Shown here: positions 19,473-37,908 of the stretch, piece by piece
How positions within the stretch are numbered: position 1 is the first letter of the stretch
Layout: each line of letters opens with the position of its first letter
The notes under the pieces: generated by a model
The model's database searches: none
What the model saw: only the letters and a program-made list of their open reading frames with translations
What the model was told of the DNA's origin: nothing
Translations under genes and position numbers: made by a program
DNA from: a bacterium
Lineage (GTDB): Bacteria > Patescibacteriota > Microgenomatia > UBA10105 > UBA927
Reading direction: 5' to 3'
DNA length: 64,000 bases
NCBI GenBank assembly: GCA_021817785.1
Contig: JAKAFY010000007.1
Location: 127-64,126 of the forward strand

Positions 19473-20474
19473 CTACGGGATAGCAGAAACGATAGTCGTC
19501 GTGTCAATGGGGCCGGGAATCTCCTGAACAGATGATGTCCCCCTGAAAACGTACACAGGAACAAGGCTTGGAAGCGCGGGGGAGTAAAAAAATCCCAAAG
19601 CAGCGGACCGGACCTGAACCGATTGTAATATCGCAGGATTGAGATATGCCACCGAATATTCTGTCGGCGTCGCACTGGAAAGCACCCCCTCGTTGTTTTG
19701 TAAACGACCAACCGCCTCATCATAAGAGATAACCGCAATATCCTCATTGCTCTTTCGAATCGTGGGGAAAACATACCCGCCGAGCTCAACGAGGCGGTTG
19801 GCTCCGTCAAAACGCGCTGAATATGCCGGGGAATCTGCGTCGCCGACATACACGCGGTATCCATCGAGGGAAACTCCATAATCTATTTGGGCCACCGTTG
19901 CGCCATTTGCGTTGCTTGTGGCGTTTGGATCAGTTCCTTGAGGATTCATGAATTGATATGTAGGGGAAGATAATACAAGCGGTTTCGGTAACACATCAAG
20001 CGTTTGCAATTTTGCCAACGTTGCCTGTTGGTAGTATATGGTGTTTTGTGAGATGCGAGCGCCAGACAACGTCGCCTCTTCGTAAGAAAAGTAAAGCGGG
20101 TTATCTGAAACAATAAGGGATTTTGGGCCGTCCGTCGTGCTTAGGTATGCCCCCCTAGACCCATGAATTGTTTCGTTTTGACCAGACACACCCAGTACAA
20201 AAGAAAACCGATTAAATACACTCTGGGTCGTGTTCGCTTGATTGATCGCATAATACGGTAATCGAGCGGGAAAAGACTCGTTGGTAACATTAACGCTGTA
20301 GGAGATTGCCCCCGTGTTTACCGGGCGAGACAGTTGGTTGACACTAATTGTCGGAACAACACGCAAGGGGGGCATCACCGCGGCTTTTTGGGTCGATTGA
20401 CTCGTATATCCAATCATTGCAAGCGCGAGGATAATTATGAAGATGAGTGCAGGCAGTATATATCGTTTATTCAT
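19473..20474 (-). CDS. Hypothetical extracytoplasmic protein with an N-terminal TM anchor. It is the last gene of the minus-strand T4SS-like operon.
   Basis: N-terminal 'ILPALIFIIILALAMIGY' helix. Ser/Thr/Asn-rich beta-type sequence. Co-directional and nearly abutting the M23 gene. Confidence 0.3.
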   Translation of the reverse strand: MNKRYILPALIFIIILALAMIGYTSQSTQKAAVMPPLRVVPTISVNQLSRPVNTGAISYSVNVTNESFPARLPYYAINQANTTQSVFNRFSFVLGVSGQNETIHGSRGAYLSTTDGPKSLIVSDNPLYFSYEEATLSGARISQNTIYYQQATLAKLQTLDVLPKPLVLSSPTYQFMNPQGTDPNATSNANGATVAQIDYGVSLDGYRVYVGDADSPAYSARFDGANRLVELGGYVFPTIRKSNEDIAVISYDEAVGRLQNNEGVLSSATPTEYSVAYLNPAILQSVQVRSAALGFFYSPALPSLVPVYVFRGTSSVQEIPGPIDTTTIVSAIP

Positions 20475-20477
20475 ACA

Positions 20478-22658
20478 TTATGGACAGCCCGGGGGGAGTG
20501 ACATTGGTACATTCTGATTTTCCCCCTGGTACCCAAAGTGTAAATGAGTTCCATATCCAAGACCACAGTTGTTTTTGATGCATCCATATGTATAGCCTGT
20601 CGTGTCAACCCATCCGATGACGTCGCCCGCTTTTATAACAATTGGTTGCCCCTTGGCAGCCACCACCTCGCTGGACACATCAAGCAAATGGGCATAGTTG
20701 GTACAAAACGTTTTTCCGCTCGTTGGGTTGGTGCCGATGAGTACAACATTGTTTCCATAACTTGCATATTTATATTGATTCGGCCCGTAGAAATTATCAT
20801 ATGAAACAACATACCCATCTTGAGCAGCCAAGACGGGGGTTTTTTGATCTGCCCCAAAGTCATACGCATTTAAGTTACGGTGCGACCCATTGGGATCGAA
20901 CGGGCGCTGGGTTATAGGCGCATGCACCGGGCACACACTTATTGTAGCAGGGGGCGGGGGAGGACCGTTCCATTCGCAGCTAAACGTAGTGGCGGCTATG
21001 TTTTCATTGATGACGTTAAATTCATTTACTGCCTTATCGTAAAGAGAGGTAAGCAGCGTTCCTACTTTTGAAGCATACCCCATTTGGGGCATATTAAACG
21101 ACGATGGAAAGATAAAAAGAATGGTAATCGTGGCGACAACGACGATCGCGATAAAAAGCGGCAAATCTTCAAATATTGACGTTGGTGCCAAAGACGAACG
21201 GCGCGACCGCTGCAGCTCGTTTGAAATGCGCGGACTCGTGAATATAAATGACGTTGCCCCATCAACCGCGCCTGAAAGCGCATCGCCCAAACGGTCACCG
21301 AAAAATCCGAGCGACGGGAAAGGGAGCCAAGGAATTCTAAAAGGCGCACCGCCCTTATTATATTGATCTATCCGCCGCCGGGCGAATATTTCCCATGGGG
21401 ACATATTAGCAGGAAGAAAGCCGTACCCTTTTGGGGCATTGGCGCTCGCACGCGCCAGCTCGAAATAGTCAAGTAATCGGTCTTTTGACGCGTCGAACAA
21501 CGAAGGATCCAACGGGCCGCGAAAAACGGTGGAAAAAACATCGCCAAAAACAGACCCCGCTCCCGCAGTCTGAGGTTTCTCGCTGAGAGACTTTGAAAGA
21601 CCCTGAGATATTTGGGTGAACAATGCAGAATGAACGAACGTCTCTCCGAGCCGGTCCGTCAGCTGTTGCGTGTTTGTCAAAAGCGTCCGCAGTGTACCGT
21701 TTACCTTTTCTTTGTACACCATCTCCCGTAATGGTTCGCCGACCAGCGACAATATGCCATCTGCCGCCTGCTGTAATCCTTTTGTGACCCCCTTGGCGTT
21801 GCCGGGGGAGAGGAACCCATTTGTCGAGTGGCCCGCCGCCCGCGGCTGTTCCAGCGACTCGGCAACCTGTGCAAGTTTTACGCCGCGGACAAGCGCTTCA
21901 GAGCGCTGATTTTCAGGAGCGTTGAGCACAATGTCTGCCAACACGTCAGGCCGCCCAAGATCGAGATGCTCATAAATAGACTCTGCTATGTCACGCTCTG
22001 TTTTAGTTGCCGCTGCAGCCGCCGAAAAATACTCGTCATGCCCCGCGATGGATTCCCGAATGATGGTTTTTAGTCGTACCCGCTGATCAGGCAAAAGCGA
22101 ATCTCCGCTTAGTTCTTCACTGGACGCCGCCATCATTTCTGCAAATCGTTCTTTGGTTTGTGCTGGTGTCCCTTCTTTCGCCGCTTGCATTAATGACTGG
22201 TCGACGACAGACGACACCTGTTTCTCGGAAACCGTCGGCGTGAACGCGCTGTATTTGGATACCAGATCGTGTATAAATGCGCGCCGCTTGTCTGTGTACG
22301 GCGCAAGCTTTGTCCGCGCATACTCCCGGGAACGTGAAAGCGCTGTGGTGCGCAGAAACGCGGTGTCTTTGATTTCTTTTTCTTTCAGCAGGGAGTCCGG
22401 CTCGCTCGCCTGAAAGCTCGGAAGATCACGCAATTTCATACGGGTTTCCGAAAATATATGCTTCAGCGCCCCGACAAGCTCTTCGTCGCCTTGTAGCGCC
22501 GCCTCAGATAATCGACCGCTTTGCGAAGAAAGCGACTCCCGAAGATATGCATACTGCTGACTTGCGGAAATTGCCTCCTGCGGCGTGATGGCGCCGCGCT
22601 CGATATCGGAAAGCAGATTGTCAGTAAATTCCAAAAGTGTCTGAGGAGAATTTGCCAT
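20478..22658 (-). CDS. Bitopic 726-aa protein. It has an N-terminal ~500-aa alpha-helical cytoplasmic domain, a central TM helix, and a C-terminal M23 (LytM-type) metallopeptidase domain.
   Basis: TM 'LPLFIAIVVVATITILFIF'. M23 motifs 'HRNLNAYDFGA' (HxxxD) and 'GTHLHFGYQ' (HxH) near the C-terminus. Immediately downstream of virB4. Confidence 0.6.
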   Translation of the reverse strand: MANSPQTLLEFTDNLLSDIERGAITPQEAISASQQYAYLRESLSSQSGRLSEAALQGDEELVGALKHIFSETRMKLRDLPSFQASEPDSLLKEKEIKDTAFLRTTALSRSREYARTKLAPYTDKRRAFIHDLVSKYSAFTPTVSEKQVSSVVDQSLMQAAKEGTPAQTKERFAEMMAASSEELSGDSLLPDQRVRLKTIIRESIAGHDEYFSAAAAATKTERDIAESIYEHLDLGRPDVLADIVLNAPENQRSEALVRGVKLAQVAESLEQPRAAGHSTNGFLSPGNAKGVTKGLQQAADGILSLVGEPLREMVYKEKVNGTLRTLLTNTQQLTDRLGETFVHSALFTQISQGLSKSLSEKPQTAGAGSVFGDVFSTVFRGPLDPSLFDASKDRLLDYFELARASANAPKGYGFLPANMSPWEIFARRRIDQYNKGGAPFRIPWLPFPSLGFFGDRLGDALSGAVDGATSFIFTSPRISNELQRSRRSSLAPTSIFEDLPLFIAIVVVATITILFIFPSSFNMPQMGYASKVGTLLTSLYDKAVNEFNVINENIAATTFSCEWNGPPPPPATISVCPVHAPITQRPFDPNGSHRNLNAYDFGADQKTPVLAAQDGYVVSYDNFYGPNQYKYASYGNNVVLIGTNPTSGKTFCTNYAHLLDVSSEVVAAKGQPIVIKAGDVIGWVDTTGYTYGCIKNNCGLGYGTHLHFGYQGENQNVPMSLPPGCP

Positions 22659-22663
22659 ACGCG

Positions 22664-24625
22664 TTATGTACTACTTTTTGTATTACCAACTGCTTCTACC
22701 GTAAACATCGGACGATTTGATCTTGGGAGGGTGGGTGGAGCCGTCAGCTCGGGAGCCGAAGACAGAGATGGCGGCTTTTTTGACGGCAGTTCCTGCATTG
22801 TCGGCACGGAAGACTGTTGTACGGCGGGGGTAGTCGGTTTCACCGTTTCCTGTGGACGCGTCGTGGCAAGCGCATGTTCTTCAGGGCTTGATACAACGCG
22901 CATTGCCGCGTGTGCGGGGCCTGCAAAAAACAACCCCTCTCCGATATCGGCCGCAAGCAGCAAATGTTTTTCCCCTTCAGATAAATAAAATACGTCGGCG
23001 ATTTTATCTATAGCCGCCGAAGATTGCTTAAGGAGAATCTGCATACTGCTGTTTTGGATAATCGCCTTTCCCATCTCCGTAGCCATAAAATCTTCCACGT
23101 CCTGGGTAATGGTGGTAAGTCCGAGATAATATTTTCTGGCCCGCTTGGCAATGCTATAGAGAAATTGCGCGGAATCCGGATATTTCATGAGATACCACGC
23201 CTCATCGACAATGAGGAGTCTTTTGCGCTTGTCATTTCTGATTTTGTTCCAGATAAAGTCCAGGATAAGATACATGGCAATGGGTCGGAGTTCATCTTCC
23301 AGATCCCGGATGGAAAAAACGGTCAGTTGATTTCGGATAGCTACGTTGGTTTGTTGGTCAAATATGCCGACTAAACTGCCCCGGACAAACTTTTCTATGC
23401 GGTCCGCCAACCCCTTGGCGAGGGGTTCTTCCATGCCGACAAGCGTTTTATACAGATCTTCCATAAGGGGAGGTTCTTTTGCGTGTGTAGTAGGATCCGG
23501 GGTGATGCCTTTCTGTTTGTATGTGAGGATAAGCGCGCGATCCAGTAATGCGTCCTCCGTCGGGGTAAGTTTGCCCATGACGACGCGGAAAAACCCATGG
23601 AGCGATAATATTTTTTGGCTGAGCTCGCTTTCTTCTCCGGCGGCATTACCAAGAAGGGCTAAGTCAAAGGGGTTTAGTTTCGTAACGGATCCGAAGCGAA
23701 ACCGGATATATTCGCCTCCCAGTGCATGAGTGACAGATTCATATTCATTCTCAGGGTCGATGATAATAACTTCCGTATCGAACATGAGAGAACGCATAAC
23801 CTCGAGTTTTACCATGTAGCTTTTACCGCCACCGGATTTTCCGAACACAACGGAGTTGGCATTTTCCAGCGTAAAACGGTCAAAGATAATTAAGCTGTCA
23901 TTGTGTTCATTCATGCCATATAAGATGCCCTCGTTTGCCGTAAGTTCGCTGGTGGTGAATGGGAAGGTGGTCGCAAGCGACGTGGTATCCATGTTTCTGG
24001 TGACGAGCAGCCGGTCTCTTCCCATGGGAAGCGTGGTTTTTAGCCCTTCCTCCATTTGTAAAATGGCTTTTTTGGTGACGATAAGCAGAGAGCCGAGTGT
24101 CGCCTCCACTTGCTTTGTCGCTTTGTCCAGGTCCTCTTTTGTTTTTGCGGGGATCGTAACATAGAGGCCAAACTGGAAAAATCGTTCCGACCCTTTTGCT
24201 AATTCCTGCTGCAGGGCAAGGGCGTCTTCTAGTGCCACCTGGATAGACGGCTCGATAACGCGGCCGCGTTTCAGGTCAGATTGTATGGTGGCCTCCATTT
24301 CCCCGACCTTGCGTTTCAGGTTTTCCAGTATTTCTTCGCTCCGCGTAGGGTAGATGTACATGGAAATATCCAACGTATGGTTAAACGACACAAGGGGTTC
24401 TAGCCAGTTGGCGGAGACGAATCTTGGATACCCCGCGACAAACAACGTCCGGTAATACCAGTCACCGACCTTTAGTAAATCAAAGTCCACTTCGATAGCA
24501 GGAGGCGCAATGATGTCCGTGACGACTAGCGGGCCGTCAATCGGCTTGGTCCGTGGGGACGGCCCCTCTGGCATGGGATTGATAAATTTTTTGAAAAGCG
24601 CCGCAATATCCGTATTATTTGCCAT
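22664..24625 (-). CDS. virB4: VirB4/TrbE/CagE-family type IV secretion ATPase.
   Basis: Walker A 'FGKSGGGKSYMVK'. Walker B 'RKRLLIVDEAWYLM'. ~650 aa with a VirB4-like C-terminal ATPase region. Confidence 0.85.
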   Translation of the reverse strand: MANNTDIAALFKKFINPMPEGPSPRTKPIDGPLVVTDIIAPPAIEVDFDLLKVGDWYYRTLFVAGYPRFVSANWLEPLVSFNHTLDISMYIYPTRSEEILENLKRKVGEMEATIQSDLKRGRVIEPSIQVALEDALALQQELAKGSERFFQFGLYVTIPAKTKEDLDKATKQVEATLGSLLIVTKKAILQMEEGLKTTLPMGRDRLLVTRNMDTTSLATTFPFTTSELTANEGILYGMNEHNDSLIIFDRFTLENANSVVFGKSGGGKSYMVKLEVMRSLMFDTEVIIIDPENEYESVTHALGGEYIRFRFGSVTKLNPFDLALLGNAAGEESELSQKILSLHGFFRVVMGKLTPTEDALLDRALILTYKQKGITPDPTTHAKEPPLMEDLYKTLVGMEEPLAKGLADRIEKFVRGSLVGIFDQQTNVAIRNQLTVFSIRDLEDELRPIAMYLILDFIWNKIRNDKRKRLLIVDEAWYLMKYPDSAQFLYSIAKRARKYYLGLTTITQDVEDFMATEMGKAIIQNSSMQILLKQSSAAIDKIADVFYLSEGEKHLLLAADIGEGLFFAGPAHAAMRVVSSPEEHALATTRPQETVKPTTPAVQQSSVPTMQELPSKKPPSLSSAPELTAPPTLPRSNRPMFTVEAVGNTKSST

Positions 24626-25325
24626 GAGATTCCTTTCCGAATTCCAGAGCGCTCATGTCCGGAGCGGTTGCCCCCGGGTTATATAAACTGAACAGAAATT
24701 TCACGAGCTGTTCTGTCGTAAGTTGCGTAGCATGGAGGCCCACGCGCGCCAGCAAACGGACGATATGATCCCGTTTTGGGAGCAGGCCCATCTGCGCGCG
24801 CTCGTAGATATATGATTTTTCATACGGAAGGCCCGTTTTTTTGGTCCCCAACAGCATGGAGGGGGAGGCGCCCAGTTCAAGGTTGGAGAAGGGAATGACG
24901 ATGTAAAACTTTTTGTCTAACACGTCCTTTTCCTTCACCATGGATGCCACAAACGCTCGGTATCCGTGGATGCTTTTGGTAAGCTGCGGATTTTTTTGCC
25001 GCGCCTCCTGATCTTCGAGAAGTTTTAAATATGCGGAGATATCTTTATGCTTGGTCTGGATGATGATTTGTATGGGAAACGATAGAGAATTAAGCAGCCC
25101 TGCATACGAGTAAATGATGGCGTCCTGTTCTTTTTCGGAAAGCAGGCCGAAATTAACGGCCGTTGTAGCAATGACGAGGGAAACGGATCCGTCCGCAAAC
25201 AATATCATGTCGTGGTCGATATCGGAAATTTCAGTAAACGATTGTGTAGACGCTCTGATGGGCACGATAGGTTGTGTCATAGGCTGTGTGTTACATGGTA
25301 TTTTTCCCGAAAATTTCCTGCGCAA
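24615..25325 (-). CDS. Hypothetical soluble protein in the T4SS-like operon, between the Pro-rich membrane protein and virB4.
   Basis: Its stop overlaps the virB4 start. No TM segments and no recognisable motif. Confidence 0.3.
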   Translation of the reverse strand: MRRKFSGKIPCNTQPMTQPIVPIRASTQSFTEISDIDHDMILFADGSVSLVIATTAVNFGLLSEKEQDAIIYSYAGLLNSLSFPIQIIIQTKHKDISAYLKLLEDQEARQKNPQLTKSIHGYRAFVASMVKEKDVLDKKFYIVIPFSNLELGASPSMLLGTKKTGLPYEKSYIYERAQMGLLPKRDHIVRLLARVGLHATQLTTEQLVKFLFSLYNPGATAPDMSALEFGKESHGK

Positions 25326-26682
25326 GCTTTTCCCGGGTGAGCTGTTTTTGACTCTTCGCGATAATTTCCAGGGCGGGGACGACCGCGCCGTTTAATGTGA
25401 TTTGTACCCGGGAAAAGGTGAATCTGCCCCGCGGGTCCTCAATTTCGACAAAATATGTGCCTGACCCCAGCGGGGTGGATGCGGCAAATTGCCCCAACTT
25501 GTTTGTTTTAAGTGCACGCATGGGTATGCCCTCTGCATTGGTGACCGTGACCAGGATGCCGGGGAGCTGATTGCCTGCATCGTCTTTTGCAAGGCCGGTA
25601 ATGACGTTGGCCACGTTCGTCAATCGCGGAAGCCCGACTTTGGTCGCCGCATCTTGGGTGTTTATCACTCGAACGGTAGATTTTTCCTGTTTCTCCTGCG
25701 GGGGAGCCGTTCCGGTTTTTGGTGCCGACCCATCTTCTGGCACGGCCGTTGCCGCACTACCCGGTTGCCCGCGGGAAAGCAGCTGCCGTTTAAGGTTGAC
25801 CAACTCATCCTCCATGGCGGAACGCTGTTGCAATACGTCAGTCAGCTGCTGCTGCAGTTCAAGTACCCGGTCAGCAGTTACATTTTTTGTCGAAAGTTGT
25901 TCTTGCAGTGTCTTAAGCGATGATTCGAGGTCTGCCATCTTCTGTTGTGTGGCGGCAGCATCGGAAATTTGTTGTTGCTGCGGCTTTGGCATTGTGGGAA
26001 CGGATGGCGTCGGTTTTATACCGGTAACACTTGGGATTGGTGCTTGAGGAATCATGCGCGCCGCTGTCTGTTGATGGACTGGTGCCGGGCGCTGTGATGG
26101 CCCCCAAAGCTCCGCAAGCCATGCCCACGGAGATGACGAAGAGCGCGTGGTAGACGTGAGTGCCTGCGCTTTTTGTGGTGAAGATGCTGGCGTCTGAAAA
26201 ATTCCGGAAAGCACTGTTTTTGTAGCGTCAGACTTAGTCGCTGCCACCCCCGGAACAGCCGGTCTCGGAATGGGGGTAGGCTGGTGCTGGGGTGGAGCGG
26301 GAGTCGCCTGTGGGCGCGCTGCGACAGGCTCCGCTTTTGGCACTTCTTTTATCCAAATATATTGGGTCGGGTTATAGATGCTTTTGAAAAACGAAAATAC
26401 CCATACGTCCATTGGACGCTCTTCGACGGGAATAAACGCAAACCCAACTCCCAGGAACGCAAATGCAAACGCAAGCGGCCACGTGAGGATAAACGGCAAA
26501 GGCAGGCGGTAGGCCAAAAAGGCCAGGATCGCTCCGGCGCACAAGTACCCGAATTGTTTAAGGGTCATGTCGCCGATTAAGCGGAATTGAAACGTGGTGA
26601 CGTTTTGTGGCACGGGGTGCTGTTCCATACTATATATGATTGTAAAGGGAAAAAAATACATGTTCAATAGCACAAAGCGCAT
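25291..26682 (-). CDS. Bitopic/polytopic membrane protein. It has 2-3 N-terminal TM helices, a Pro/Gln-rich linker, a coiled coil and a C-terminal globular domain. Its architecture resembles VirB10/TcpC.
   Basis: N-terminal helices (LCAGAILAFLAYRL; LAFAFAFLGVGFAFI). 'PQATPAPPQHQPTPIPRPAVPG...' proline-rich tract. A coiled-coil segment (LESSLKTLQEQLSTK...). It is the first gene of the minus-strand operon. Confidence 0.3.
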   Translation of the reverse strand: MRFVLLNMYFFPFTIIYSMEQHPVPQNVTTFQFRLIGDMTLKQFGYLCAGAILAFLAYRLPLPFILTWPLAFAFAFLGVGFAFIPVEERPMDVWVFSFFKSIYNPTQYIWIKEVPKAEPVAARPQATPAPPQHQPTPIPRPAVPGVAATKSDATKTVLSGIFQTPASSPQKAQALTSTTRSSSSPWAWLAELWGPSQRPAPVHQQTAARMIPQAPIPSVTGIKPTPSVPTMPKPQQQQISDAAATQQKMADLESSLKTLQEQLSTKNVTADRVLELQQQLTDVLQQRSAMEDELVNLKRQLLSRGQPGSAATAVPEDGSAPKTGTAPPQEKQEKSTVRVINTQDAATKVGLPRLTNVANVITGLAKDDAGNQLPGILVTVTNAEGIPMRALKTNKLGQFAASTPLGSGTYFVEIEDPRGRFTFSRVQITLNGAVVPALEIIAKSQKQLTREKLAQEIFGKNTM

Positions 26683-26688
26683 CAGGAC

Positions 26689-26718: not shown

Positions 26719-26771
26719 AAACCCCGGAAGCTCTCAGGGTTGCCCACAGAAATTGTGATAAGATAGAAGCC

Positions 26772-29509: not shown

Positions 29510-29578
29510 CTCCCTTGTTGTTGTCTTTCGGACACGATAGAATAATACCAGACGCGCAACAAAGCGCGTCCGTATGCT

Positions 29579-32500
29579 ATGGCCAATGAAGAACTATTTA
29601 AACGGTTAAGCGAAGCTGCAAAAAAAGCTGCCGCACCAAACAGTGAGCAGGCTCATCCGCAGCAGTCCACGGAAGCTACCAAGGCGGACCTTCCGAAGGA
29701 AAGCGCAACAGCTCCAGACACCTCCGGGGTCATAGACGTGGCAAAAGAAAAATTGGCGGAATTTGCCCAAAAACTCCGAGGATCCGTTCCCGAGGCAGCA
29801 AAGAGAATTGTCGGAAGCGACGAATCGGATTTGCCAAAAGATGCCCGCGTGTTTAGCATCGTAGAATCGCTTCTGGCTGTTGATGAGTCCCAGCTATCTG
29901 ATCCTGTTTTTATGCGCGGCGTGGGAGAAAAGCTGGTGGGACTTATCCAGGAAACGGGGTATACCAGCGCAACCGGTCGCGAAGCGGAAAAATACCTGCG
30001 GCGCATCGTTGCAGAAAATCCAAGTCTTGCGGATTTGCGTCTCCGGGCCATGCCGGAAATATCCGGTGGATCAGGTCTTTCTGAAGACAGAGAAGACGAA
30101 CCCGCAAAACAGTCTCGAGATCCCGAGCTTAGCCAAGAGGTTGAGCATCTTTATAATGCGGAACAAGACGTGGATATCAAAGACACGCCTCTTGCACAGG
30201 ATCTGCAGGACTTACAGTATCGGTTCCGAGTCGATCCGGGAGCCGCATACGACACCCGGCTTACCGATGAGGCGGTGCGCCGTATGGTGGAAAAAGGGCG
30301 CAAAGAAGGCATGGACCCTACTACGGTACAAAAGGCTGTAGAACGGGTGCGCTATTTTGAACGGTTTACGGATCTTCGGATGCAAAAACACCAAGAAAAA
30401 CTTCGTGGAGGTCGAGTGGTAGCGTGGAGTGAAATTAAGGGATCGTCCCCTAATCCCGAACTGCATCATGATGATGACGTTTTTCCGGACTTCCGGTATA
30501 TTCCGGCGGCTGAAGTGGAAACGATTATTAAAGGAGATGGTGGAGAGGCGGAGTGGTATTTTAATTTTATTGATCAAATTTACTCGCTTGGCCGTGAAGA
30601 AACACGTCCGACGCTTACGCAGGATCAGCGGTTTCAGGAGTTTAAAGATTTTCTTACATGGAAATATGGGAGCGAGTATCACCTTGCGGTGCAGCTGTAT
30701 CAAAAACATTGGGACAGCCGCGGGCAATTTGAGTATGCGGTCAAAGGACTCATGTATAACCCGGGAGACGTCAAGGACCGACTGAAGGCGATGTCACTAT
30801 TACAAGGGGCTGACCTTGACCACCTCTATAAAAATTTTGACCACTCGAACGAAGCATATAGTCTGTACGAGCATGTCATGTTTGAGCTCATGGCAGAAAA
30901 GCGCGGGAAATATGGAGAGGCGCTGAAATACCTTCGGGAAGACATCAACTGGAACGGAAAACAGATGAAGCGTGAAGACGTACTCAAAGAGCTGAAAGCA
31001 AAGCAGCGCGAAGAAGGGTATGATCCGGAAAAAGGAAAAACGGAGACGTCACTTTCGGTCGCGGATCAACGGCTCATGCATGAAATTCAGCAACAAATGG
31101 ATCTGGCTTCCGAGGGTGTTATGTTGTGGGATGACGACGTCCAAAGCTTTACCGAACTTCATATTACACTTTCCAAACTCCGGAATGCCAGAGAGGATTT
31201 ATTAAAGAAAAAAGGTGAGGGAGCGGTACTTTCCGAGAGTGAACAGGATCAACTGCATGAGGTGGATCGTTTATACCAAATATATTCGCACCGCGAAGAG
31301 ATGCTCAACGAAAATTTTACACAGGAGCTTATTCAGACCCGCGGATTATCACCGGTGGACATTGAAGTACGTAAACGCCTGGTAGAGTATATGAAGTCAC
31401 AAACCGGCAAAGAGCCGGCGGAGTATGAGGTGCGCATGGCACTGTGGGCTGCGCGCACCGCCATGATAGGAAGCGGCCGCATGGCCATGATTGGCTCGAT
31501 GATGTCGATCCCGCCATCTCAGGAATATCACGCGGCAAGCGGCAAAGATGTCATGCGCGCCCCCGCCTTTGAAGACTTGCAACGCATATTTAATCCGGAG
31601 ACATTCGCTTCCCGGTTTAATATTGGCGGAGAGATGGGGGTTACGGCCAGAGGAATACTGCGGCAAAACCTGTTACGGACCAAAGGCATTACGATGAAAG
31701 ATCCCGGCTGGTTTAAGAAAACAAGCGGATGGATAGGCGAGAAATTTAAGTTAACCAAAACACCGGAATGGAAAAACGCCCATGCGCATTCTCACGACAA
31801 ACAACAACAGGCGGCCATGGAAGCATGGGAGTTTGCAGAGGATGCGACCGGCATATCGTTTAGCGAATTGCTCGGACCCAGCTTTATGGCCTCTGGAGGA
31901 TTTTACGATGGCACCGCGTGGCGGTTGGAGAAAGGGATTGCTGATGAACTACGAAATAAGATGCTAGATATGAGAAAATTGCCGGAAAACGCAGCGCTAT
32001 TGGATAATCAGGCATTATCCATACAGCTTCTCACTGCGGGGAATGCAGCCGAGCGCCGGCCGATTCTCGATCGCATGCTCCGAAGAAACCCCTCGAAATT
32101 CCTTGAACTTCTTGAAGAGGACACAGAAAAGATCCTCATTAAACATAATGTAACGCATGAAGAGTGGAAGAAGTTTAAAGAAGCTCTTTCGTTGGCCGAG
32201 CTTAAGATGGCCCACGAGAAAGAATGGCAATTTGCCCGTGTCGATCTGGGGGAGAAAAAAGACTTTGATGCGTTGGTAGCCCCGTATCTTAAAATGCTCG
32301 ATGTTGAACCCGGAAGAACCGAAAGTTTCCGCGCGGTGCTCACTGATTTGCAGGCAGAAGTGTATCGGAGCCGCAAGGTGGAGGCAGCAAGCGGCGTATT
32401 CCGGAACAAAATGGATGCCATAGCCCAGCTTAAGATGCCTCTTACCATGAGTCTTACCGACATGGACTGGAAGGAATCAAACTTTTATCAGTTAGGAACT

Positions 32501-33199
32501 GTTGCAATGCATCGCCGTATTCGTGATGTGGGGAGCCAGATGCGCGCACGCGATGCCATGCTTGAATTTATGTCCAACTCCGAAATGTTGCTTTCCCCCA
32601 ATGATCCGACGGAGTCATTGAAGAAACTCATGGAAATCCGTACGGCGATTATCGACTACTCCGGACCGGAAGCTGCGGAAAATACCGTAAAAGAAATGGC
32701 ACGCGTGCTTATCGAAATGAATAGACATCGGAATTTATGGACGATCGGCATGGTTCCCGGCTTAACCACCGCAGGAAAGATGTTCGCGGAGGTGGATTTC
32801 CGGCCGCTAAAGGATAGTTGGGCCACGGCCCCACTACGACTTATTATGGGGGGAGATCGTTGGCGCAAATTGATAGACGAAAAGATAGCGCACTTGCCGC
32901 ACTCTGTAGCAGAGAAGATTTCGTATTCTCTGCGGTATACAGGAGCACACGGAAATGCATGGGACGAACGGAAAATCGAAGAAGTGTTAGTTACCATGCA
33001 TGATATGGGCATGTTTATTCACCATCCTGAATACGTTCAAGACCTGAGGAGAGAATTTCATGCGAAATTGGGAGATCGGTGGCTGGCAATGGCGAGAACG
33101 TACTGGTGGGTTATTGTGCTGGCAACAGTAGCAATTGCCGCAGAACAGTCTATAGAAGAACAGAAATCTGGCGGTGGTGGCGGAGGCGCGCACCATTAA
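29579..33199 (+). CDS. Giant (1206 aa), highly charged, alpha-helical protein. It has a single C-terminal hydrophobic anchor and a Gly-rich tail. No signal peptide and no recognisable domain.
   Basis: Uninterrupted ORF. Lys/Glu/Asp-rich throughout. The C-terminus reads 'WWVIVLATVAIAAEQSIEEQKSGGGGGGAHH'. Co-oriented with virD4 and nadD, and convergent on the VirB6-like gene. Confidence 0.5.
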   Translation: MANEELFKRLSEAAKKAAAPNSEQAHPQQSTEATKADLPKESATAPDTSGVIDVAKEKLAEFAQKLRGSVPEAAKRIVGSDESDLPKDARVFSIVESLLAVDESQLSDPVFMRGVGEKLVGLIQETGYTSATGREAEKYLRRIVAENPSLADLRLRAMPEISGGSGLSEDREDEPAKQSRDPELSQEVEHLYNAEQDVDIKDTPLAQDLQDLQYRFRVDPGAAYDTRLTDEAVRRMVEKGRKEGMDPTTVQKAVERVRYFERFTDLRMQKHQEKLRGGRVVAWSEIKGSSPNPELHHDDDVFPDFRYIPAAEVETIIKGDGGEAEWYFNFIDQIYSLGREETRPTLTQDQRFQEFKDFLTWKYGSEYHLAVQLYQKHWDSRGQFEYAVKGLMYNPGDVKDRLKAMSLLQGADLDHLYKNFDHSNEAYSLYEHVMFELMAEKRGKYGEALKYLREDINWNGKQMKREDVLKELKAKQREEGYDPEKGKTETSLSVADQRLMHEIQQQMDLASEGVMLWDDDVQSFTELHITLSKLRNAREDLLKKKGEGAVLSESEQDQLHEVDRLYQIYSHREEMLNENFTQELIQTRGLSPVDIEVRKRLVEYMKSQTGKEPAEYEVRMALWAARTAMIGSGRMAMIGSMMSIPPSQEYHAASGKDVMRAPAFEDLQRIFNPETFASRFNIGGEMGVTARGILRQNLLRTKGITMKDPGWFKKTSGWIGEKFKLTKTPEWKNAHAHSHDKQQQAAMEAWEFAEDATGISFSELLGPSFMASGGFYDGTAWRLEKGIADELRNKMLDMRKLPENAALLDNQALSIQLLTAGNAAERRPILDRMLRRNPSKFLELLEEDTEKILIKHNVTHEEWKKFKEALSLAELKMAHEKEWQFARVDLGEKKDFDALVAPYLKMLDVEPGRTESFRAVLTDLQAEVYRSRKVEAASGVFRNKMDAIAQLKMPLTMSLTDMDWKESNFYQLGTVAMHRRIRDVGSQMRARDAMLEFMSNSEMLLSPNDPTESLKKLMEIRTAIIDYSGPEAAENTVKEMARVLIEMNRHRNLWTIGMVPGLTTAGKMFAEVDFRPLKDSWATAPLRLIMGGDRWRKLIDEKIAHLPHSVAEKISYSLRYTGAHGNAWDERKIEEVLVTMHDMGMFIHHPEYVQDLRREFHAKLGDRWLAMARTYWWVIVLATVAIAAEQSIEEQKSGGGGGGAHH

Positions 33200-33200
33200 G

Positions 33201-34823
33201 CTAATGCCCGCCCTCTCCTCCTCCGGTGAGGCCACCAAACCCCTTTTGTGAGCCTTCGCGTATCGTTTGCATCGGAGATCGCGCATCCGGCTTGTGCCGA
33301 ATTGAGCTTGCGATAAATGAACCCTGATACCATAGTTGTGTAAGTTGACCAACGCCAGACCCCAGAGGTCCGATAACCGCCCCGACCCCTCCAGGGATAA
33401 ATGGTTCCGCCTTCAGCGCCTTTTTGATGCTGCCAACAATATTCGGGATGACGAGAAGCATCCCAAGTCCGATAAATCCGGCCATGCCCGTAACCCCTCC
33501 GCCGCTTGATAAAAGTGGCGGAGCCCATATTTTTTCCGCGTTGGTTTGCGAAGTAAGAAATCCCGCCACCAGAAGAAGTACTGCGGTGAGGGGAAACACG
33601 ATAATATTTGCGGTCAGCCATCGAAACCAGCTACTGAATGAATTGGTGCCCGGGATGGCCTCCAGCATGAGCTGGAATGGTGAAAATAACAGAGAAATAA
33701 TAATATTGATATATGCGTCCACAAGCATAAAAATCAGACGGATAATTCCAAAGATTAAAACGATAAGAACGATAAGAAGAAGCAGGACCGGACCGTTTGT
33801 AAGTCCGACGGCTATGGCGGAAGCCTTTCCACCGCCTCCGATTAAGTAGGTGAGGACCCCCTGTACGACCATTGCAGTTCCAACCTGACCTGGAGTGAGA
33901 TTGCCTATCAAAAGTCTGCCAATATCATCAAGCGCCTGGAATCCGCTTGCGAAAAAGAATCGGAGCGTTCCCCATATGCCGCCATTCAATAATGTATTAA
34001 CGACCTGCGGAGTAGAGGTAGACGTGGTTGTAAACGACGGAAGCCACGTGGCCGGGCTTAATAAATTTGGATTCCACAGCCAGCTTGCCCCGGCGTTCAC
34101 GAGGGATCCAAGCGATCCATCGGGTGTGGCTCCGATGATGAGCCCGGCGGCGAGAACAATGATAAGGTACATAAGGTCAATCATAAGTCCCACGATTGCA
34201 TATGAAAATGTGACGAGAAGAAGTGCGATGACCACCCTGGGGATAGCATTTTGCACGGTTACAACTGTTTTGGGATCGATTTTTTTTCTAAACATGACCA
34301 TAAAACCGATAATGATGAGAATAACGGCAAGAAGTGCATAAGCGACGTTACGAAACGCTTTCCAAATGGGGAGCAGTACGCTAAGTCCGGAAAAACCGAT
34401 GCCCTGCGCATACGTTTGTTTGGGCATAAATCCGAGTGTCTCTCCAAGATCGCGGATGGCGAACGCAGTTGTCGCAGGGGGAGTGGTATAAAGCGCAAGC
34501 GTAACACTTGAAAGCCCGGCAAGCGCACTGTGACTATATGCGGCTTTTGCAGGACATCCTCCGACGAAATAGGCTCCGGCTATGCTAATAGTGTCCTGAA
34601 ACATGTAATTGTTATTGGACGAAGCCTGTGGCGTTGTTCCCTCGGCACACGCACCCATGATGCTGTAAATAATGCCCACCATGGAATTATTTTGTGTCGC
34701 AATATTTCCTCCCTCAAGACCAAGAGGAGTGGGATCTTCTGCGCGGACGGAGGTGGGAAATGCAAAAAAAACGGTTACGCCAATGAGAAGAGGAAGAATC
34801 AACAATAGGACAGCACGTTTCAT
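33201..34823 (-). CDS. VirB6/TrbL-like polytopic inner-membrane channel protein.
   Basis: Signal peptide (MKRAVLLLILPLLIGVTVFFAFPTSVRA). A ~130-aa extracytoplasmic region, then 5 or more TM helices, and a Gly-rich C-terminal tail. Located directly downstream of the pilin array. Confidence 0.45.
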   Translation of the reverse strand: MKRAVLLLILPLLIGVTVFFAFPTSVRAEDPTPLGLEGGNIATQNNSMVGIIYSIMGACAEGTTPQASSNNNYMFQDTISIAGAYFVGGCPAKAAYSHSALAGLSSVTLALYTTPPATTAFAIRDLGETLGFMPKQTYAQGIGFSGLSVLLPIWKAFRNVAYALLAVILIIIGFMVMFRKKIDPKTVVTVQNAIPRVVIALLLVTFSYAIVGLMIDLMYLIIVLAAGLIIGATPDGSLGSLVNAGASWLWNPNLLSPATWLPSFTTTSTSTPQVVNTLLNGGIWGTLRFFFASGFQALDDIGRLLIGNLTPGQVGTAMVVQGVLTYLIGGGGKASAIAVGLTNGPVLLLLIVLIVLIFGIIRLIFMLVDAYINIIISLLFSPFQLMLEAIPGTNSFSSWFRWLTANIIVFPLTAVLLLVAGFLTSQTNAEKIWAPPLLSSGGGVTGMAGFIGLGMLLVIPNIVGSIKKALKAEPFIPGGVGAVIGPLGSGVGQLTQLWYQGSFIASSIRHKPDARSPMQTIREGSQKGFGGLTGGGEGGH

Positions 34824-34877
34824 ATAGTCATTATCCAGAATTACATAGCGAGAGTCAATTCGGGGATAATTTGGAAT

Positions 34878-35174
34878 TTAATTTACCGGTATGGAAAACG
34901 TTGTAACATTGACGCCCGTAAATTGTTGAATGGTAAGTATTATAAGGTACGCAATAGACATAATGGCGAGACCGATGATGGCTTGGGTAATCGTGCCTCG
35001 CGCCGTTTCCAGTTTCTTGGGGTCACCTCCGGAAAACAGAAAATTATATCCGCCCACCAAAAGCATGATAAACAATGCTACCGCCCCTAAGCCGATAACT
35101 GCCCGAACGATTCCTTCAAAAAGGGGGACAAGACATTGAATAGTTGCGGCCCCGTCAATTGCGCAATTGTTCAT
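34878..35174 (-). CDS. VirB2/TrbC-like pilin paralog 1.
   Basis: Two hydrophobic helices flank a conserved core 'GGYNFLFSGGDPKKLETARGTITQAIIGLAIM'. Confidence 0.55.
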   Translation of the reverse strand: MNNCAIDGAATIQCLVPLFEGIVRAVIGLGAVALFIMLLVGGYNFLFSGGDPKKLETARGTITQAIIGLAIMSIAYLIILTIQQFTGVNVTTFSIPVN

Positions 35175-35225
35175 ATGACATCATTATCTCGTATTTCTTC
35201 AGAAGGGACAAGCAATCGATAATGA

Positions 35226-35564
35226 TTAGTATGGTTTCGGGAAGTTTATAGACCCGCCGATGATCTGTACGCCCAGGAAGTTCTGGACGAGCGTCATGAT
35301 GGCCCATGCGGATCCTACGATGATGAGTCCGACAATAGCGTGGGTAATTTTGTTGCGGGCTTCTTCCATGCCGGCTTTATCTCCGCCGGAGGTGATCCAT
35401 TTAATGCCGCCTAAGACAAGGTAGAGAAATGCCAAAAGAGCGGCAATAATCAGTGTTGTGCCGACCAATGCACTAATCAGTTGGCCAAGATCCGTGATCT
35501 TAATCGTGTCCGGCTGTTTCAGATTTAATGATGCCTGTGCGTAAACTGTTTCTATAAGTGCCAT
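35226..35564 (-). CDS. VirB2/TrbC-like pilin paralog 2.
   Basis: Core 'GGIKWITSGGDKAGMEEARNKITHAIVGLIIVGSAWAIMTLV'. N-terminal 'YAQAS'. Confidence 0.55.
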   Translation of the reverse strand: MALIETVYAQASLNLKQPDTIKITDLGQLISALVGTTLIIAALLAFLYLVLGGIKWITSGGDKAGMEEARNKITHAIVGLIIVGSAWAIMTLVQNFLGVQIIGGSINFPKPY

Positions 35565-35676
35565 AGGTTTCCTCCGTCAAATCAATCTTTATTATATCCT
35601 ATACCCCATTCTTGCGCAAATTTGTCGGCCTTGTCAACACCGAGCTTTATCAAGCAGCGACACGGGAAACAAATCG

Positions 35677-36024
35677 CTATTGGCCCATGGTCGGCAGATG
35701 CAAGTTCGGGAAATCGATACCCAAAAATCCGCCCACAAGCGTCATGATTGCCCATATGGCTCCCACGATAATAAGCCCGATAATGGCATTGGTAATCTCA
35801 TCCCGTGCGGCCTGGAGCTTCGCCTTGTCTCCGCCCGAGGTAATCCAGTTAAATCCGCCGAGCAACAGATACATAAATGCGACGACGAACGAAAAAATGA
35901 CAAACGCGCCGATAAAGTTCGAAATAAGGGATCCGATGGCAGATGAGCCGTCCGCGTTGCCGCCGCCACCCAATGAGCTCGGAAGTACCGGGTTGGTTAT
36001 TTGTGCGAGCGCGTGCGTTATCAT
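35677..36024 (-). CDS. VirB2/TrbC-like pilin paralog 3.
   Basis: Core 'GGFNWITSGGDKAKLQAARDEITNAIIGLIIVGAIWAIMTLV'. N-terminal 'HALAQI'. Confidence 0.55.
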   Translation of the reverse strand: MITHALAQITNPVLPSSLGGGGNADGSSAIGSLISNFIGAFVIFSFVVAFMYLLLGGFNWITSGGDKAKLQAARDEITNAIIGLIIVGAIWAIMTLVGGFLGIDFPNLHLPTMGQ

Positions 36025-36029
36025 ATCGG

Positions 36030-36404
36030 TTATTGATTCGGACTAAGCCGGTTAATCAGATCTCCAGGACTGGAAATAGTAAAGTCAACGCCAAAAAATG
36101 TCCCGGCAAGCGCTAATATAGCCCACGCGGCAACCACAACAATAAGCCCGATAAATGCGTTGGTCAGTTTATCGCGGGCGGTTTGCAGCTTTGCCTTATC
36201 GCCGCCGGCGGAAATCCAGCTGAATCCGCCAATCAAAAACTGGATAAGAAACCAAATCCCTGCGGCGATCGTCATGAGGCCAACGACTGAGGAGATTATT
36301 TTTGTTATCCCCATGAGCCCGGAGGTTCCGTCGCTGCTGTTGGCGAATGGCCCGAGGCCTGCGCCACCGATTTGACCGAGCGGTACTTGTGCTAAAGGTT
36401 TCAT
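36030..36404 (-). CDS. VirB2/TrbC-like pilin paralog 4.
   Basis: Core 'GGFSWISAGGDKAKLQTARDKLTNAFIGLIVVVAAWAILALA'. N-terminal 'MKPLAQV'. Confidence 0.55.
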   Translation of the reverse strand: MKPLAQVPLGQIGGAGLGPFANSSDGTSGLMGITKIISSVVGLMTIAAGIWFLIQFLIGGFSWISAGGDKAKLQTARDKLTNAFIGLIVVVAAWAILALAGTFFGVDFTISSPGDLINRLSPNQ

Positions 36405-36405
36405 A

Positions 36406-36759
36406 CTATTGCGGGCCGTAGATTACCGGATTTAGGATCGAGAATCCCGGTCCGAAAATGAGATAGCCAAACAGTGACGCGATGGCAAACGATGCCACCA
36501 TGATGACCAGCCCCATAAGTGACTGCCATATGCGGGACCACGCCTTTTCCAGTTTTTTGCTGTCGCCTCCCGCATTGATGTATTCAAATCCGGCGATGAG
36601 AAAGTTAAATAATGCGTATATGCCAGCCACAACAAACAACAAACGGATAATGTTGGTGATAAACAGCCCAACTCCGCCCAGATTGCCATAGCTGGTGCCC
36701 ATGAGCGGACTCTGAACCGTTCCGAAAATCGGTGCGACGTCTACAGCAAGTACTTTCAT
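36406..36759 (-). CDS. VirB2/TrbC-like pilin paralog 5 (the most divergent).
   Basis: Core 'AGFEYINAGGDSKKLEKAWSRIWQSLMGLVIMVASFAIASLFG'. Confidence 0.5.
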   Translation of the reverse strand: MKVLAVDVAPIFGTVQSPLMGTSYGNLGGVGLFITNIIRLLFVVAGIYALFNFLIAGFEYINAGGDSKKLEKAWSRIWQSLMGLVIMVASFAIASLFGYLIFGPGFSILNPVIYGPQ

Positions 36760-36765
36760 AAAACG

Positions 36766-37074
36766 TTAAAATCCCAGTAATTTTTGACCGGTGATGACAC
36801 TGATAATTTGTACGATCCAAAATGACCCGAATACTACAAGCAATCCGATAACCGCGCCCGTTATCGCGGCTTTGCCCTGTTCCGCTTTTTTGGCGTCGCC
36901 TGCGGCTACTATAACTTGAAAACCGCCGAAAATCAATAAAAAGAAGCTTATAAGACTGGCAAAAACAAACGCATTCCGGACGATTGCGGTGACCAACGGG
37001 CCAAAGGACGTGAGTCCCGGGTTCGGGGCGAGATTTGCAATATCTATAGAGTCCGCAAGCACTTTTTCGATCAT
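36766..37074 (-). CDS. VirB2/TrbC-like pilin paralog 6. The start is placed at the internal Met (MIEKVL...) of the longer 36766..37224 ORF.
   Basis: Core 'GGFQVIVAAGDAKKAEQGKAAITGAVIGLLVVFGSFWIVQII'. The longer ORF would run into the divergent sigma-factor promoter region. Confidence 0.45.
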   Translation of the reverse strand: MIEKVLADSIDIANLAPNPGLTSFGPLVTAIVRNAFVFASLISFFLLIFGGFQVIVAAGDAKKAEQGKAAITGAVIGLLVVFGSFWIVQIISVITGQKLLGF

Positions 37075-37092
37075 GTAGCCAGTGTAGGGAAT

Positions 37093-37674
37093 TTGAGGCG
37101 GGCAGTCAATTATGCTATAGTCATACGTTGTCTCATGGATGATACAACGCTTATCAAACGATTGTTTGCCCACGACCGGAAATCCGTCTCCGCGTTTTAT
37201 CACGAATACGCCCCGCAATTGCACCGATTTATCCTGGGACGCGTTGCATTTTCCCAGGATGCAGAAGAGATTTTACAGGATACCCTGTTTGCATTTTTGG
37301 AAGGCCTTCGGGATTTTCAGGGGAAAAGCAGTATCCGGACATATCTGTTTTCCATTTGTCAGCACAAAATAATCGACTACTATCGCCGGAAGAAAATAAA
37401 GCATCTGGTGTTTTCCCAGGTTCCGCAGCTTGAAATGCTGGTATCTCCGCTGATGGGGCCCGAGGCATCACTCGATGAAAAGCTGGTAAAAGAGAAAATC
37501 CAGAAAGTACTTTCCCGGATTGCCCCTGTATACCGCCAGGTGCTGGTACTCAAATATCTGGAGCAGGTGCCGGTTGAGGAAATTGCCCAAAAACTTTCCA
37601 TATCGTTTAAAAGTGCGGAGTCACGGCTTTTCCGTGCCCGAAAAAATTTCGTGGAGCTGTTTTTGTCTATCTAA
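37093..37674 (+). CDS. RNA polymerase sigma-70 factor, ECF subfamily.
   Basis: Region 2 'LQDTLFAFLEGLRDF...YLFSICQHKIIDYYRRK'. Region 4 'YRQVLVLKYLEQVPVEEIAQKLSISFKSAESRLFRARKNF'. ~190 aa. Confidence 0.85.
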   Translation: MRRAVNYAIVIRCLMDDTTLIKRLFAHDRKSVSAFYHEYAPQLHRFILGRVAFSQDAEEILQDTLFAFLEGLRDFQGKSSIRTYLFSICQHKIIDYYRRKKIKHLVFSQVPQLEMLVSPLMGPEASLDEKLVKEKIQKVLSRIAPVYRQVLVLKYLEQVPVEEIAQKLSISFKSAESRLFRARKNFVELFLSI

Positions 37675-37677
37675 CCT

Positions 37678-37908
37678 ATGAGCAGCATTGCCTATCAGCG
37701 GTTTATGAAACGATGGGAAGAAGTGACGGATTTGCCTCCTCAGTCCCTGGGGCCGCTGACCGGCGTATACAAATGGTGCACGAAACGGTTTAAAGTCATG
37801 CCGTGGCCGTGGTTTATCGGCGTCAGCATCGTCATTGCGATAGGGATATATATCATATTGGGATCCGCCATTTCGTATCTTGTCACGTTGCTCCAGAGGG
37901 GGTTTTAG
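37678..37908 (+). CDS. Small single-TM protein directly downstream of the ECF sigma. Candidate anti-sigma factor.
   Basis: 76 aa with a C-terminal TM 'WPWFIGVSIVIAIGIYIILGSAI'. Four bp downstream of the sigma stop. Its position is the only functional evidence. Confidence 0.3.
   Translation: MSSIAYQRFMKRWEEVTDLPPQSLGPLTGVYKWCTKRFKVMPWPWFIGVSIVIAIGIYIILGSAISYLVTLLQRGF

Follow-up and report, generated by a model that had tools for sequence, protein, structure and literature searches.

Patescibacteria encode type IV secretion systems (T4SSs) that a 2025 review places among the newcomers to the T4SS superfamily. In Southlakia epibionticum ML1, the T4SS genes SEML1_0006-0019 lie at the start of the chromosome, have a Gram-positive-like composition, and lack a relaxase; transposon sequencing (Tn-seq) showed that epibiotic growth requires both these genes and a series of pilin genes (Wang et al. 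2023, Cell, PMC10633639). A phylum-wide survey (Quinonero-Coronel et al. 2025, Microb Genom, PMC12102498) described a monophyletic VirB4 clade related to mating-pair formation class MPF-FATA, together with TrsD, PrgI, VirB6, and VirB2-like components, pilin arrays of 2 to 11 genes (especially in Microgenomatia and Saccharimonadia), proximity of the T4SS to dnaA/dnaN in Paceibacteria and Microgenomatia, and a scarcity of relaxases. Tubular structures at the parasite-host interface, possibly T4SS pili, have also been reported (2026 preprint, bioRxiv 10.64898/2026.06.21.733656). Here we analyze a T4SS locus at positions 19473-37908 of a 64-kb stretch of contig JAKAFY010000007.1 (assembly GCA_021817785.1), referred to below as the window.

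The locus is very probably a chromosomal T4SS of the Patescibacteria type, derived from monoderm (MPF-FATA) conjugation machinery with loss of the DNA-processing module, and its most likely role is contact-dependent exchange with a host cell. The gene content, the homologies of the components, the absence of a relaxase and an integrase, the proximity to the origin, and the conserved synteny are established by the data, whereas the mechanism and role given below are a working model. The system is already known: a preliminary description of this DNA had implied novelty, and the same conclusions, although correct, are already in print (PMC10633639, PMC12102498, PMC12857230).

Organization of the locus beside the origin

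Only about 1.2 kb separates the locus from the likely replication origin, which is placed there because dnaA and dnaN, a cluster of perfect DnaA boxes, and a turn in GC skew coincide (Table 1). A DnaA-box search found three perfect TTATCCACA boxes in the dnaA-dnaN spacer (at 18195, 18216, and 18260) and two further boxes upstream of dnaA (at 16779 and 16789, spanning 16779-16797), and the cumulative GC skew reaches its minimum and turns at ~16 to 18 kb of the window. The dnaN gene is convergent with the 333-aa gene that ends the virB4 operon, their stop codons being 1 nt apart.

The genes named in the preliminary description are all present where it had placed them; the two operons that it proposed are instead three T4SS transcription units plus a sigma factor unit. 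The virB4 operon (minus strand, 26682 to 19473) codes in order for a PrgI-like protein, a TrsD/TraC-like protein, VirB4, an M23 peptidase protein, and a 333-aa protein, with neighboring genes spaced or overlapping by just 3 to 11 nt. Divergent from it is a plus-strand unit (26772 to 33199) coding for an ATPase resembling type IV coupling proteins (T4CPs), NadD, and a 1206-aa protein, and a second minus-strand unit (37074 to 33201) contains six pilin genes followed by the gene of a 540-aa polytopic protein. An extracytoplasmic function (ECF) sigma factor gene and the gene of a 76-aa membrane protein are divergent from the pilins and lead to a Yip1-like gene and a mevalonate operon. Promoter and terminator scans of the locus were uninformative.

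Among the matches listed, the VirB4 homologues bearing a taxon name are from Gottesmanbacteria or Patescibacteria, and assembly GCA_027424485.1 holds proteins 100% identical to those of the window. Judging from these similarities, the genome belongs to the Patescibacteria (candidate phyla radiation, CPR), within the Microgenomatia/Candidatus Gottesmanbacteria group.

Table 1. Origin, T4SS locus, and related features in the window (TM, transmembrane)
Feature	Position	Strand	Evidence
Origin region: dnaA with DnaA boxes on both sides	16779-18268		Pfam Bac_DnaA; DnaA-box search; GC-skew minimum
dnaA	16817-18184	+	Pfam Bac_DnaA
dnaN (DNA polymerase III beta clamp)	18362-19471	+	Pfam DNA_pol3_beta domains 1-3
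333-aa bitopic protein, last gene of virB4 operon	19473-20474	-	TM prediction
726-aa M23 metallopeptidase protein	20478-22658	-	Pfam Peptidase_M23; TM prediction
VirB4 ATPase, monoderm CD1110/MPF-FATA type, without the usual N-terminal domain	22664-24625	-	NCBIfam; Pfam; PDB
TrsD/TraC-like protein, 221 aa	24615-25280	-	Sub-threshold NCBIfam; precomputed PF26593
PrgI/VirB3-like membrane protein, first gene of virB4 operon	25291-26682	-	Pfam PrgI
T4CP-like (VirD4/TrwB-like) P-loop ATPase	26772-28949	+	Pfam; NCBIfam; PDB
nadD (nicotinate-nucleotide adenylyltransferase)	28949-29509	+	TIGR00482, 122.8 bits (cut-off 112.45)
1206-aa all-alpha protein	29579-33199	+	Between nadD and VirB6-like gene
540-aa polytopic membrane protein, VirB6/DotA-like by fold, last gene of pilin operon	33201-34823	-	TM prediction; fold
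Six tandem VirB2-like pilin genes	34878-37074	-	PF18895 T4SS_pilin
Individual pilin genes	34878-35174, 35226-35564, 35677-36024, 36030-36404, 36406-36759, 36766-37074	-	PF18895
ECF-type sigma factor	37135-37674	+	TIGR02937, 85 bits (cut-off 42.9); Pfam Sigma70_r2, r4_2
76-aa single-pass membrane protein	37678-37908	+	TM at 47-65; directly after sigma gene
Seventh PF18895 pilin homologue, 193 aa	46915-47496	-	T4SS_pilin, 30.6 bits (cut-off 26.6)

The virB4 operon

VirB4 matches NCBIfam conju_CD1110 at 397.7 bits (cut-off 325) over profile positions 187-730 of 752, has the Pfam domains P-loop_TraG and AAA_10, and finds Thermoanaerobacter VirB4 as its top match of solved structure (PDB 4ag5, 1e-46), so that the hidden Markov model (HMM) check proposed in the preliminary description upholds its assignment. 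In a homologue search that scored 8000 sequences, the best 120 of the 8000 are all at least 73% identical to it. There is also a weak NCBIfam match to CedB (51.7 against a cut-off of 700). The conju_CD1110 match and the close homologues appear to place VirB4 within the Patescibacteria clade related to MPF-FATA. The TrsD/TraC-like gene overlaps virB4 by 11 nt, and its product, with sub-threshold NCBIfam matches to TrsD and to VirB4_plasma positions 104-280 and a precomputed PF26593 (TraC-like) match, would in effect be the VirB4 N-terminal domain encoded by a separate gene; the open reading frame (ORF) 24615-25325, called here as 221 aa, had previously been left unassigned.

The product of the first gene of the operon scores above the Pfam PrgI cut-off (29.3 against 27 bits) and has two predicted TM segments, followed by a Pro-rich linker, a coiled coil, and a CarboxypepD_reg-like beta domain (a sub-threshold Pfam match). 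It had been described as a Pro-rich bitopic protein, and is instead PrgI/VirB3-like. The 726-aa protein does end in an M23 peptidase, as had been reported (Peptidase_M23 at residues 597-716, 39.7 bits against a cut-off of 28.7), and has a single predicted TM segment (499-517) and an N-terminal domain of ~500 aa without known homology. The M23 motifs SHxxLNAYD, YAHL, and HLH (His, Asp, and HxH) are present in most of 18 homologues from related loci, and the protein is likely the cell-wall-opening enzyme of the system, in the role of VirB1.

The 333-aa gene begins 3 nt after the M23 gene and codes for a protein with an N-terminal TM segment (residues 6-24), the remainder being predicted extracellular. 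An exhaustive HMMER search defines a fast-evolving family of 107 clusters, nearly all of ~330 aa. The protein has no Pfam or NCBIfam match, and a Pfam search with 49 family members returned nothing consistent and no TcpC, VirB8, or PrgL signal; the family profile gives one weak match in the PDB (E = 1e-4), to the cell-wall-binding repeats of C. difficile toxin A at positions 160-226. The 333-aa protein could be a VirB8-type scaffold, or a surface or cell-wall-binding factor.

Six pilins and a candidate VirB6 protein

The array of six tandem VirB2-like pilin genes stands as first described: four of the six products score above the PF18895 cut-off and two just under it, and each has two predicted TM helices and, in the alignment, a conserved GG...GGD..K loop (the gene at 36766-37074 is called as 102 aa). 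The six are mutually 19 to 40% identical. When compared with the pilins of five other genomes, identity is 42 to 85% at the same position and 14 to 45% across positions, with the second pilin (35226-35564) the most conserved and the predicted major subunit. These values are evidence that the six pilins are ancient, position-specific orthologues under purifying selection, a pattern that favors six nonredundant structural roles over rapid variation of the antigenic type.

Window positions 46915-49250 contain a seventh PF18895 homologue, which is longer than the others, lies 9 kb from the array, and is divergent from the gene of a 580-aa SpoIID-like cell-wall protein; the two may constitute a second pilin/wall-remodeling module.

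The 540-aa protein encoded after the pilins has a signal-like N terminus and about six predicted TM segments. The preliminary description had called it a VirB6/TrbL-like channel; neither Pfam nor NCBIfam supports this, and nothing was found with Pfam searches of 36 family members or with the family profile against PDB sequences, so that the assignment keeps its support from topology, position, and fold similarity. The predicted fold is closest to DotA and TrwI/VirB6, which rank first in a Foldseek search with E-values that are not significant. From fold, position, and topology together, the protein is probably of the VirB6 type and likely a subunit of the channel or stalk base. VirB6 homologues are scarce in Microgenomatia and extreme divergence has been suspected (PMC12102498), and the 540-aa protein is a candidate for the VirB6 subunit missed by HMM surveys of this class.

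At 33165-33240, the VirB6-like gene and the gene of the 1206-aa protein are convergent, with stop codons 1 nt apart, and both proteins have a conserved Gly-rich C-terminal tail ending in His (consensus ...GGGGH and ...TGGGxxxH). We considered a shared bidirectional terminator hairpin at these C-terminal coding regions and rejected it, the fold z-score against shuffled sequences (-1.27) not being significant.

A core chromosomal locus

The domain scan covered nearly all ORFs of ~100 aa or more in the window and detected none with a relaxase, integrase, transposase, VirB11, VirB9, or VirB10 domain; VirB7, too, was not found in the window with Pfam and NCBIfam. There are no att-like repeats around the locus, a search for them returning short chance-level matches and a pilin paralogue repeat, and GC content stays level from dnaA across the locus and past it.

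We compared the locus with 80 Microgenomatia loci retrieved with a VirB4 profile, in which VirB4 is 59 to 87% identical. A PrgI-like gene adjoins virB4 in 77 of the 80, and TrsD does so in 78. The position relative to dnaN could be read in 57 informative loci, those with at least 9 kb downstream of virB4; dnaN lies no more than 5.7 kb downstream in 50 of them, with a median gap of 3.2 kb and almost always in convergent orientation. The order from PrgI-TrsD-VirB4 to dnaN-dnaA is kept at VirB4 identities of 62 to 87%, and contigs of the Gottesmanbacteria group (6/6) share an identical gene order all the way from virB4 to the mevalonate operon.

One could suppose that the locus is an ordinary or decaying integrative conjugative element (ICE) inserted beside dnaN, whose relaxase and integrase lie beyond the window or were recently lost. 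The family of VirB4 takes its name from conjugative transposon proteins (CD1110), the locus encodes a T4CP-like ATPase, and a lower GC content to the left of dnaA (1-16 kb) is a hint of local gene flux. However, 64 kb without a relaxase, integrase, transposase, or att repeats, the uniform GC content, and a gene order that extends to dnaN/dnaA and the mevalonate operon and persists across genomes all speak against such an element; VirB4 is extremely conserved, as a core gene is expected to be, and relaxases are rare in Patescibacteria and rarely near virB4 (PMC12102498). We regard an ICE as largely refuted and give it only the slimmest chance. Because relaxase, integrase, and att repeats are absent, GC content is even, and synteny is conserved, the data support a locus that is chromosomal, core, vertically inherited, and nonconjugative rather than a mobile element. 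The preliminary description had come to the same view from the absence of a relaxase, VirB11, VirB7/9, an integrase, and element boundaries and from the adjacent origin, favoring a pilus, host-interaction, or uptake role, and the synteny comparison that it proposed bears it out.

The T4CP-like ATPase, nadD, and the 1206-aa protein

The VirD4/TraG-like ATPase without a TM domain is likewise as first described: it matches Pfam TrwB_AAD_bind at 30.4 bits (cut-off 20.5) together with TraG-D_C and DUF87, and TM prediction finds no TM or hydrophobic segment. A precomputed match places a DUF8128 domain at its N terminus. Its NCBIfam matches, to CedD, CD1115, and TraD, are weak, the top one being CedD (41.1 against a cut-off of 600), and its best PDB matches, TrwB and DotL, are restricted to the P-loop region. 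The gene is divergent from the virB4 operon, and homologues occur in 35 of the 80 Microgenomatia loci, all from a Gottesmanbacteria-like group.

The start codon of nadD overlaps the ATPase stop codon by 1 nt. By its family match, nadD is a housekeeping gene located within the locus and not a part of the T4SS. In some relatives nadE (NAD synthase) is inserted next to nadD (L084, 15213-16498; L086, 16522-17848). Because nadD sits on the ATPase stop codon and nadE lies beside it in relatives, NAD-salvage genes appear to be stably cotranscribed with the T4CP-like ATPase and the ~1200-aa protein.

The 1206-aa protein lacks a signal peptide and has one short hydrophobic stretch near its C terminus (residues 1169-1187); it had been called tail-anchored, and although the stretch is there, its shortness leaves anchoring uncertain. 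Its homologue search yielded only 41 proteins (identity 46% or higher), all devoid of Pfam domains, and the family has many invariant residues. Structure prediction, proposed in the preliminary description, gave a poor all-alpha AlphaFold2 model (pLDDT 61, pTM 0.27), and Foldseek against the PDB returned generic helical-repeat matches and nothing meaningful. Relatives carry proteins of 1134 to 1405 aa at the same place. The protein is specific to this clade, and its location after nadD and before the VirB6-like gene is conserved.

Mechanism and function

A plausible mechanism can be assembled from these components. The PrgI/VirB3-like protein, TrsD, and VirB4 would form an energizing ATPase platform at the membrane, with the VirB6/DotA-like polytopic protein as channel or pilus base, while local opening of the cell wall would fall to the membrane-anchored M23 peptidase. 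The six distinct VirB2-like pilins would be pulled out of the membrane by VirB4 and polymerized into a tube or pilus reaching the host cell, and the T4CP-like ATPase lacking a TM segment, perhaps with the 1206-aa protein, may recruit or energize a substrate, feeding or receiving it. The system most likely exchanges macromolecules with a host cell on contact as part of an epibiotic lifestyle, either importing host material or exporting effectors. Transfer of a plasmid or ICE is unlikely.

The direction of exchange could be inward, with a DNA-uptake machine like Helicobacter ComB or archaeal Ced importing host or environmental DNA (or RNA) as a source of nucleotides and the T4CP-like ATPase acting as motor. 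A relaxase-free T4SS with an FtsK/HerA/TrwB-type ATPase fits such a machine, as do the matches of the ATPase to CedD and of VirB4 to CedB, although both scores are tiny fractions of their cut-offs. Patescibacteria do not synthesize nucleotides, and their T4SSs have been proposed to take in DNA or other macromolecules (PMC12102498); RNA feeding has been reported for a cultivated relative, and the window holds nucleotide-salvage genes (nucleoside deoxyribosyltransferase-like, HD 5'-nucleotidase-like, and comF-like). Nonetheless, the window lacks a ComEC-like channel, and in Southlakia comEC-dependent uptake is separable from the essentiality of the T4SS, for which its authors favor protein export or another role. 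We consider an uptake machine unlikely, while deserving real weight.

The system could instead export effectors or promote adhesion, the pilus attaching to a host bacterium and the channel delivering proteins into or onto it, as in interbacterial and pathogen T4SSs. Several diverged pilins are a feature of host-interacting T4SSs (PMC12102498), Wang et al. propose that the Southlakia system, being without coupling and relaxase proteins, exports proteins or serves some other purpose, and the 1206-aa protein, which is large, conserved, cytoplasmic, and cotranscribed with the T4CP-like ATPase, could be a substrate or a chaperone platform. However, the locus has no recognizable effector, toxin, or immunity genes, and six position-specific pilin orthologues under purifying selection fit structural specialization better than antigenic variation. 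Export or adhesion is doubtful to a similar degree; we rate host nucleic-acid import and effector export or adhesion about equally, both well above conjugation.

Several observations weigh against a Patescibacteria-type T4SS for host exchange as we propose it. The function is extrapolated from one species of Saccharibacteria and from none of the Microgenomatia, and a highly divergent relaxase may exist elsewhere in the genome, beyond the window. No VirB8-type protein was identified in the locus, the VirB6 assignment depends on a medium-confidence model (pLDDT 67) and the nonsignificant Foldseek matches given above, and the 1206-aa and 333-aa proteins, which are the largest unknowns, have no assigned role. 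The T4CP homology of the ATPase is mostly confined to the P-loop region; because the genes of such ATPases mostly lie at a distance from virB4 in Patescibacteria genomes and that of Southlakia is dispensable (PMC12102498), it may not be part of the machine.

The ECF sigma factor and the 76-aa protein

The ECF sigma factor of the preliminary description is clearly recognizable, and its gene lies near the pilin array in all six related contigs. As a regulator of the T4SS it is not established: it is divergent from the pilins and has the same orientation as the downstream Yip1-like and mevalonate/isoprenoid genes, and in one contig (L087) it is separated from the pilins by a polyprenyl synthase gene. 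For these two reasons the link is one of position, and regulation of the T4SS is a possibility. The gene of the 76-aa membrane protein also occupies the same position in 6/6 related contigs, and from this placement the protein is a possible anti-sigma factor.

Other regions of the window

The mevalonate operon (38582-46582), which adjoins the T4SS locus in all related contigs examined, is complete, with genes for HMG-CoA reductase, HMG-CoA synthase, thiolase and its OB-fold partner, mevalonate kinase, a GHMP kinase fused to a Nudix (IDI-like) domain, and diphosphomevalonate decarboxylase; it is followed by a gene judged by eye to be undecaprenyl-diphosphate synthase-like (45899-46582).

To the left of dnaA, positions 1-16757 have a GC content of 0.41 to 0.45 (~0.49 elsewhere) and hold a cell-surface glycan cluster. 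Its genes include two Wzy/O-antigen-ligase-like genes, two GT4 glycosyltransferases, an asparagine synthase, an epimerase, an Alg14/Alg13-like pair, a PMT-like gene, a 1003-aa PQQ-propeller/glycosidase-like protein, and a homologue of reversibly glycosylated polypeptides. The last of these is the final gene of the cluster and the only one recurring by dnaA in relatives (6/80 loci), and for this reason the cluster seems to be a variable stretch next to the origin that may have been acquired.

The right end of the window (52022-64000) is dense in RNA genes, with SmpB beside tmRNA (52595-53027). ARAGORN reports five tRNA-Ser and two tRNA-Arg genes, including the unusual anticodons Ser-ACT and Arg-GCG; Rfam, at its gathering score, did not confirm the tRNA-Ser calls at 55487-55571 and 58444-58535. 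Two small GIY-YIG ORFs (53058-53384 and 56349-56603) are interspersed among the RNA genes, and an unassigned 229-aa ORF (54776-55465) overlaps tRNA-Ser(GCT). Genes of the nucleotide-salvage type occur at 53381-54049, 57963-58975, and 61961-62554, among them a ComF-like phosphoribosyltransferase and an HD-domain 5'-deoxynucleotidase-like protein. The ORF at 58499-58975 is nucleoside 2-deoxyribosyltransferase-like by a weak Pfam match under the cut-off, and the adjoining look-alike at 57963-58382 has no Pfam match. The salvage genes fit an organism that scavenges nucleic-acid building blocks.

Comparison with known T4SSs

Unlike the Gram-negative VirB/VirD4 systems (MPF-T, such as R388 Trw and Agrobacterium VirB), the locus has no outer-membrane VirB7/9/10 core, no VirB11, and no recognizable VirB5 or VirB8, and belongs to a monoderm cell; absence of VirB7, VirB9, and VirB11 is normal in monoderm systems (PMC12102498). 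The component set had been described as unlike characterized T4SSs, which for the Gram-positive ones is only partly right: it is essentially that of monoderm MPF-FATA systems (pCF10 Prg/Pcf, pGO1 Trs, and C. difficile CTn2 CD1110), with the VirB2-like pilins as a genuine extra. Shared with MPF-FATA are VirB4, PrgI/VirB3, TrsD, a probable VirB6-type channel, a membrane-anchored peptidoglycan hydrolase, a T4CP-like ATPase, and the absence of VirB7/9/10/11. The locus differs in lacking a relaxase, an integrase, a PrgB-type adhesin, and a recognized oriT, in having VirB2-like pilins, which monoderm conjugation systems lack, in an M23 hydrolase rather than one of the SLT+CHAP type, in a T4CP without a membrane anchor, and in being fixed in the chromosome rather than mobile.

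The closest match is the Patescibacteria T4SS of Southlakia and of the phylum as a whole, which also has an MPF-FATA-related VirB4, TrsD, PrgI/VirB3, a VirB6-type protein (a probable one here), a peptidase downstream of virB4, divergent VirB2-like pilins (six here), no relaxase, and a chromosomal location beside dnaA/dnaN. There are nonetheless differences. A T4CP-like ATPase without a TM segment adjoins the virB4 operon here, whereas only 148 of 5,713 T4CPs in the survey are near virB4 and the Southlakia locus has none; the VirB6-type protein is not detectable by HMMs; nadD (with nadE in some relatives) and a clade-specific ~1200-aa protein are embedded in the locus; and an ECF sigma gene flanks the pilin array. 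PrgI adjoins virB4 in 77 of our 80 loci, compared with 22.6% of the VirB3 homologues detected in Microgenomatia by the survey, figures with different denominators; the survey HMMs may have missed weakly scoring PrgI fusions.

The T4SS of the Gottesmanbacteria group may, tentatively, hold undescribed parts: a hyperdivergent VirB6/DotA-like channel, six ancient pilin orthologues, a cytoplasmic module in which the ATPase without a TM segment (DUF8128) is translationally coupled to nadD and the all-alpha ~1200-aa protein comes next, and control by an ECF sigma factor and a small membrane protein. This is possible, although we think it unlikely to hold in full. If it does, the channel protein fills the reported VirB6 gap of Microgenomatia, the six-orthologue set implies a heteromeric or functionally partitioned pilus, and the cytoplasmic module could serve this clade as a specific platform that recruits or imports substrates.

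The conserved unknowns (the 333-aa protein, the N-terminal domain of the 726-aa protein, and the 1206-aa protein) are candidates for follow-up. Apart from the Patescibacteria T4SS, no T4SS is reported as essential to the growth of its own bacterium, and no monoderm one is reported to have VirB2-like pilins. The window provides a clean and complete Microgenomatia example of it rather than a new kind of system, and adds to what is described a VirB6 candidate, pilins that behave as nonredundant orthologues, and a T4CP-like ATPase beside the virB4 operon.

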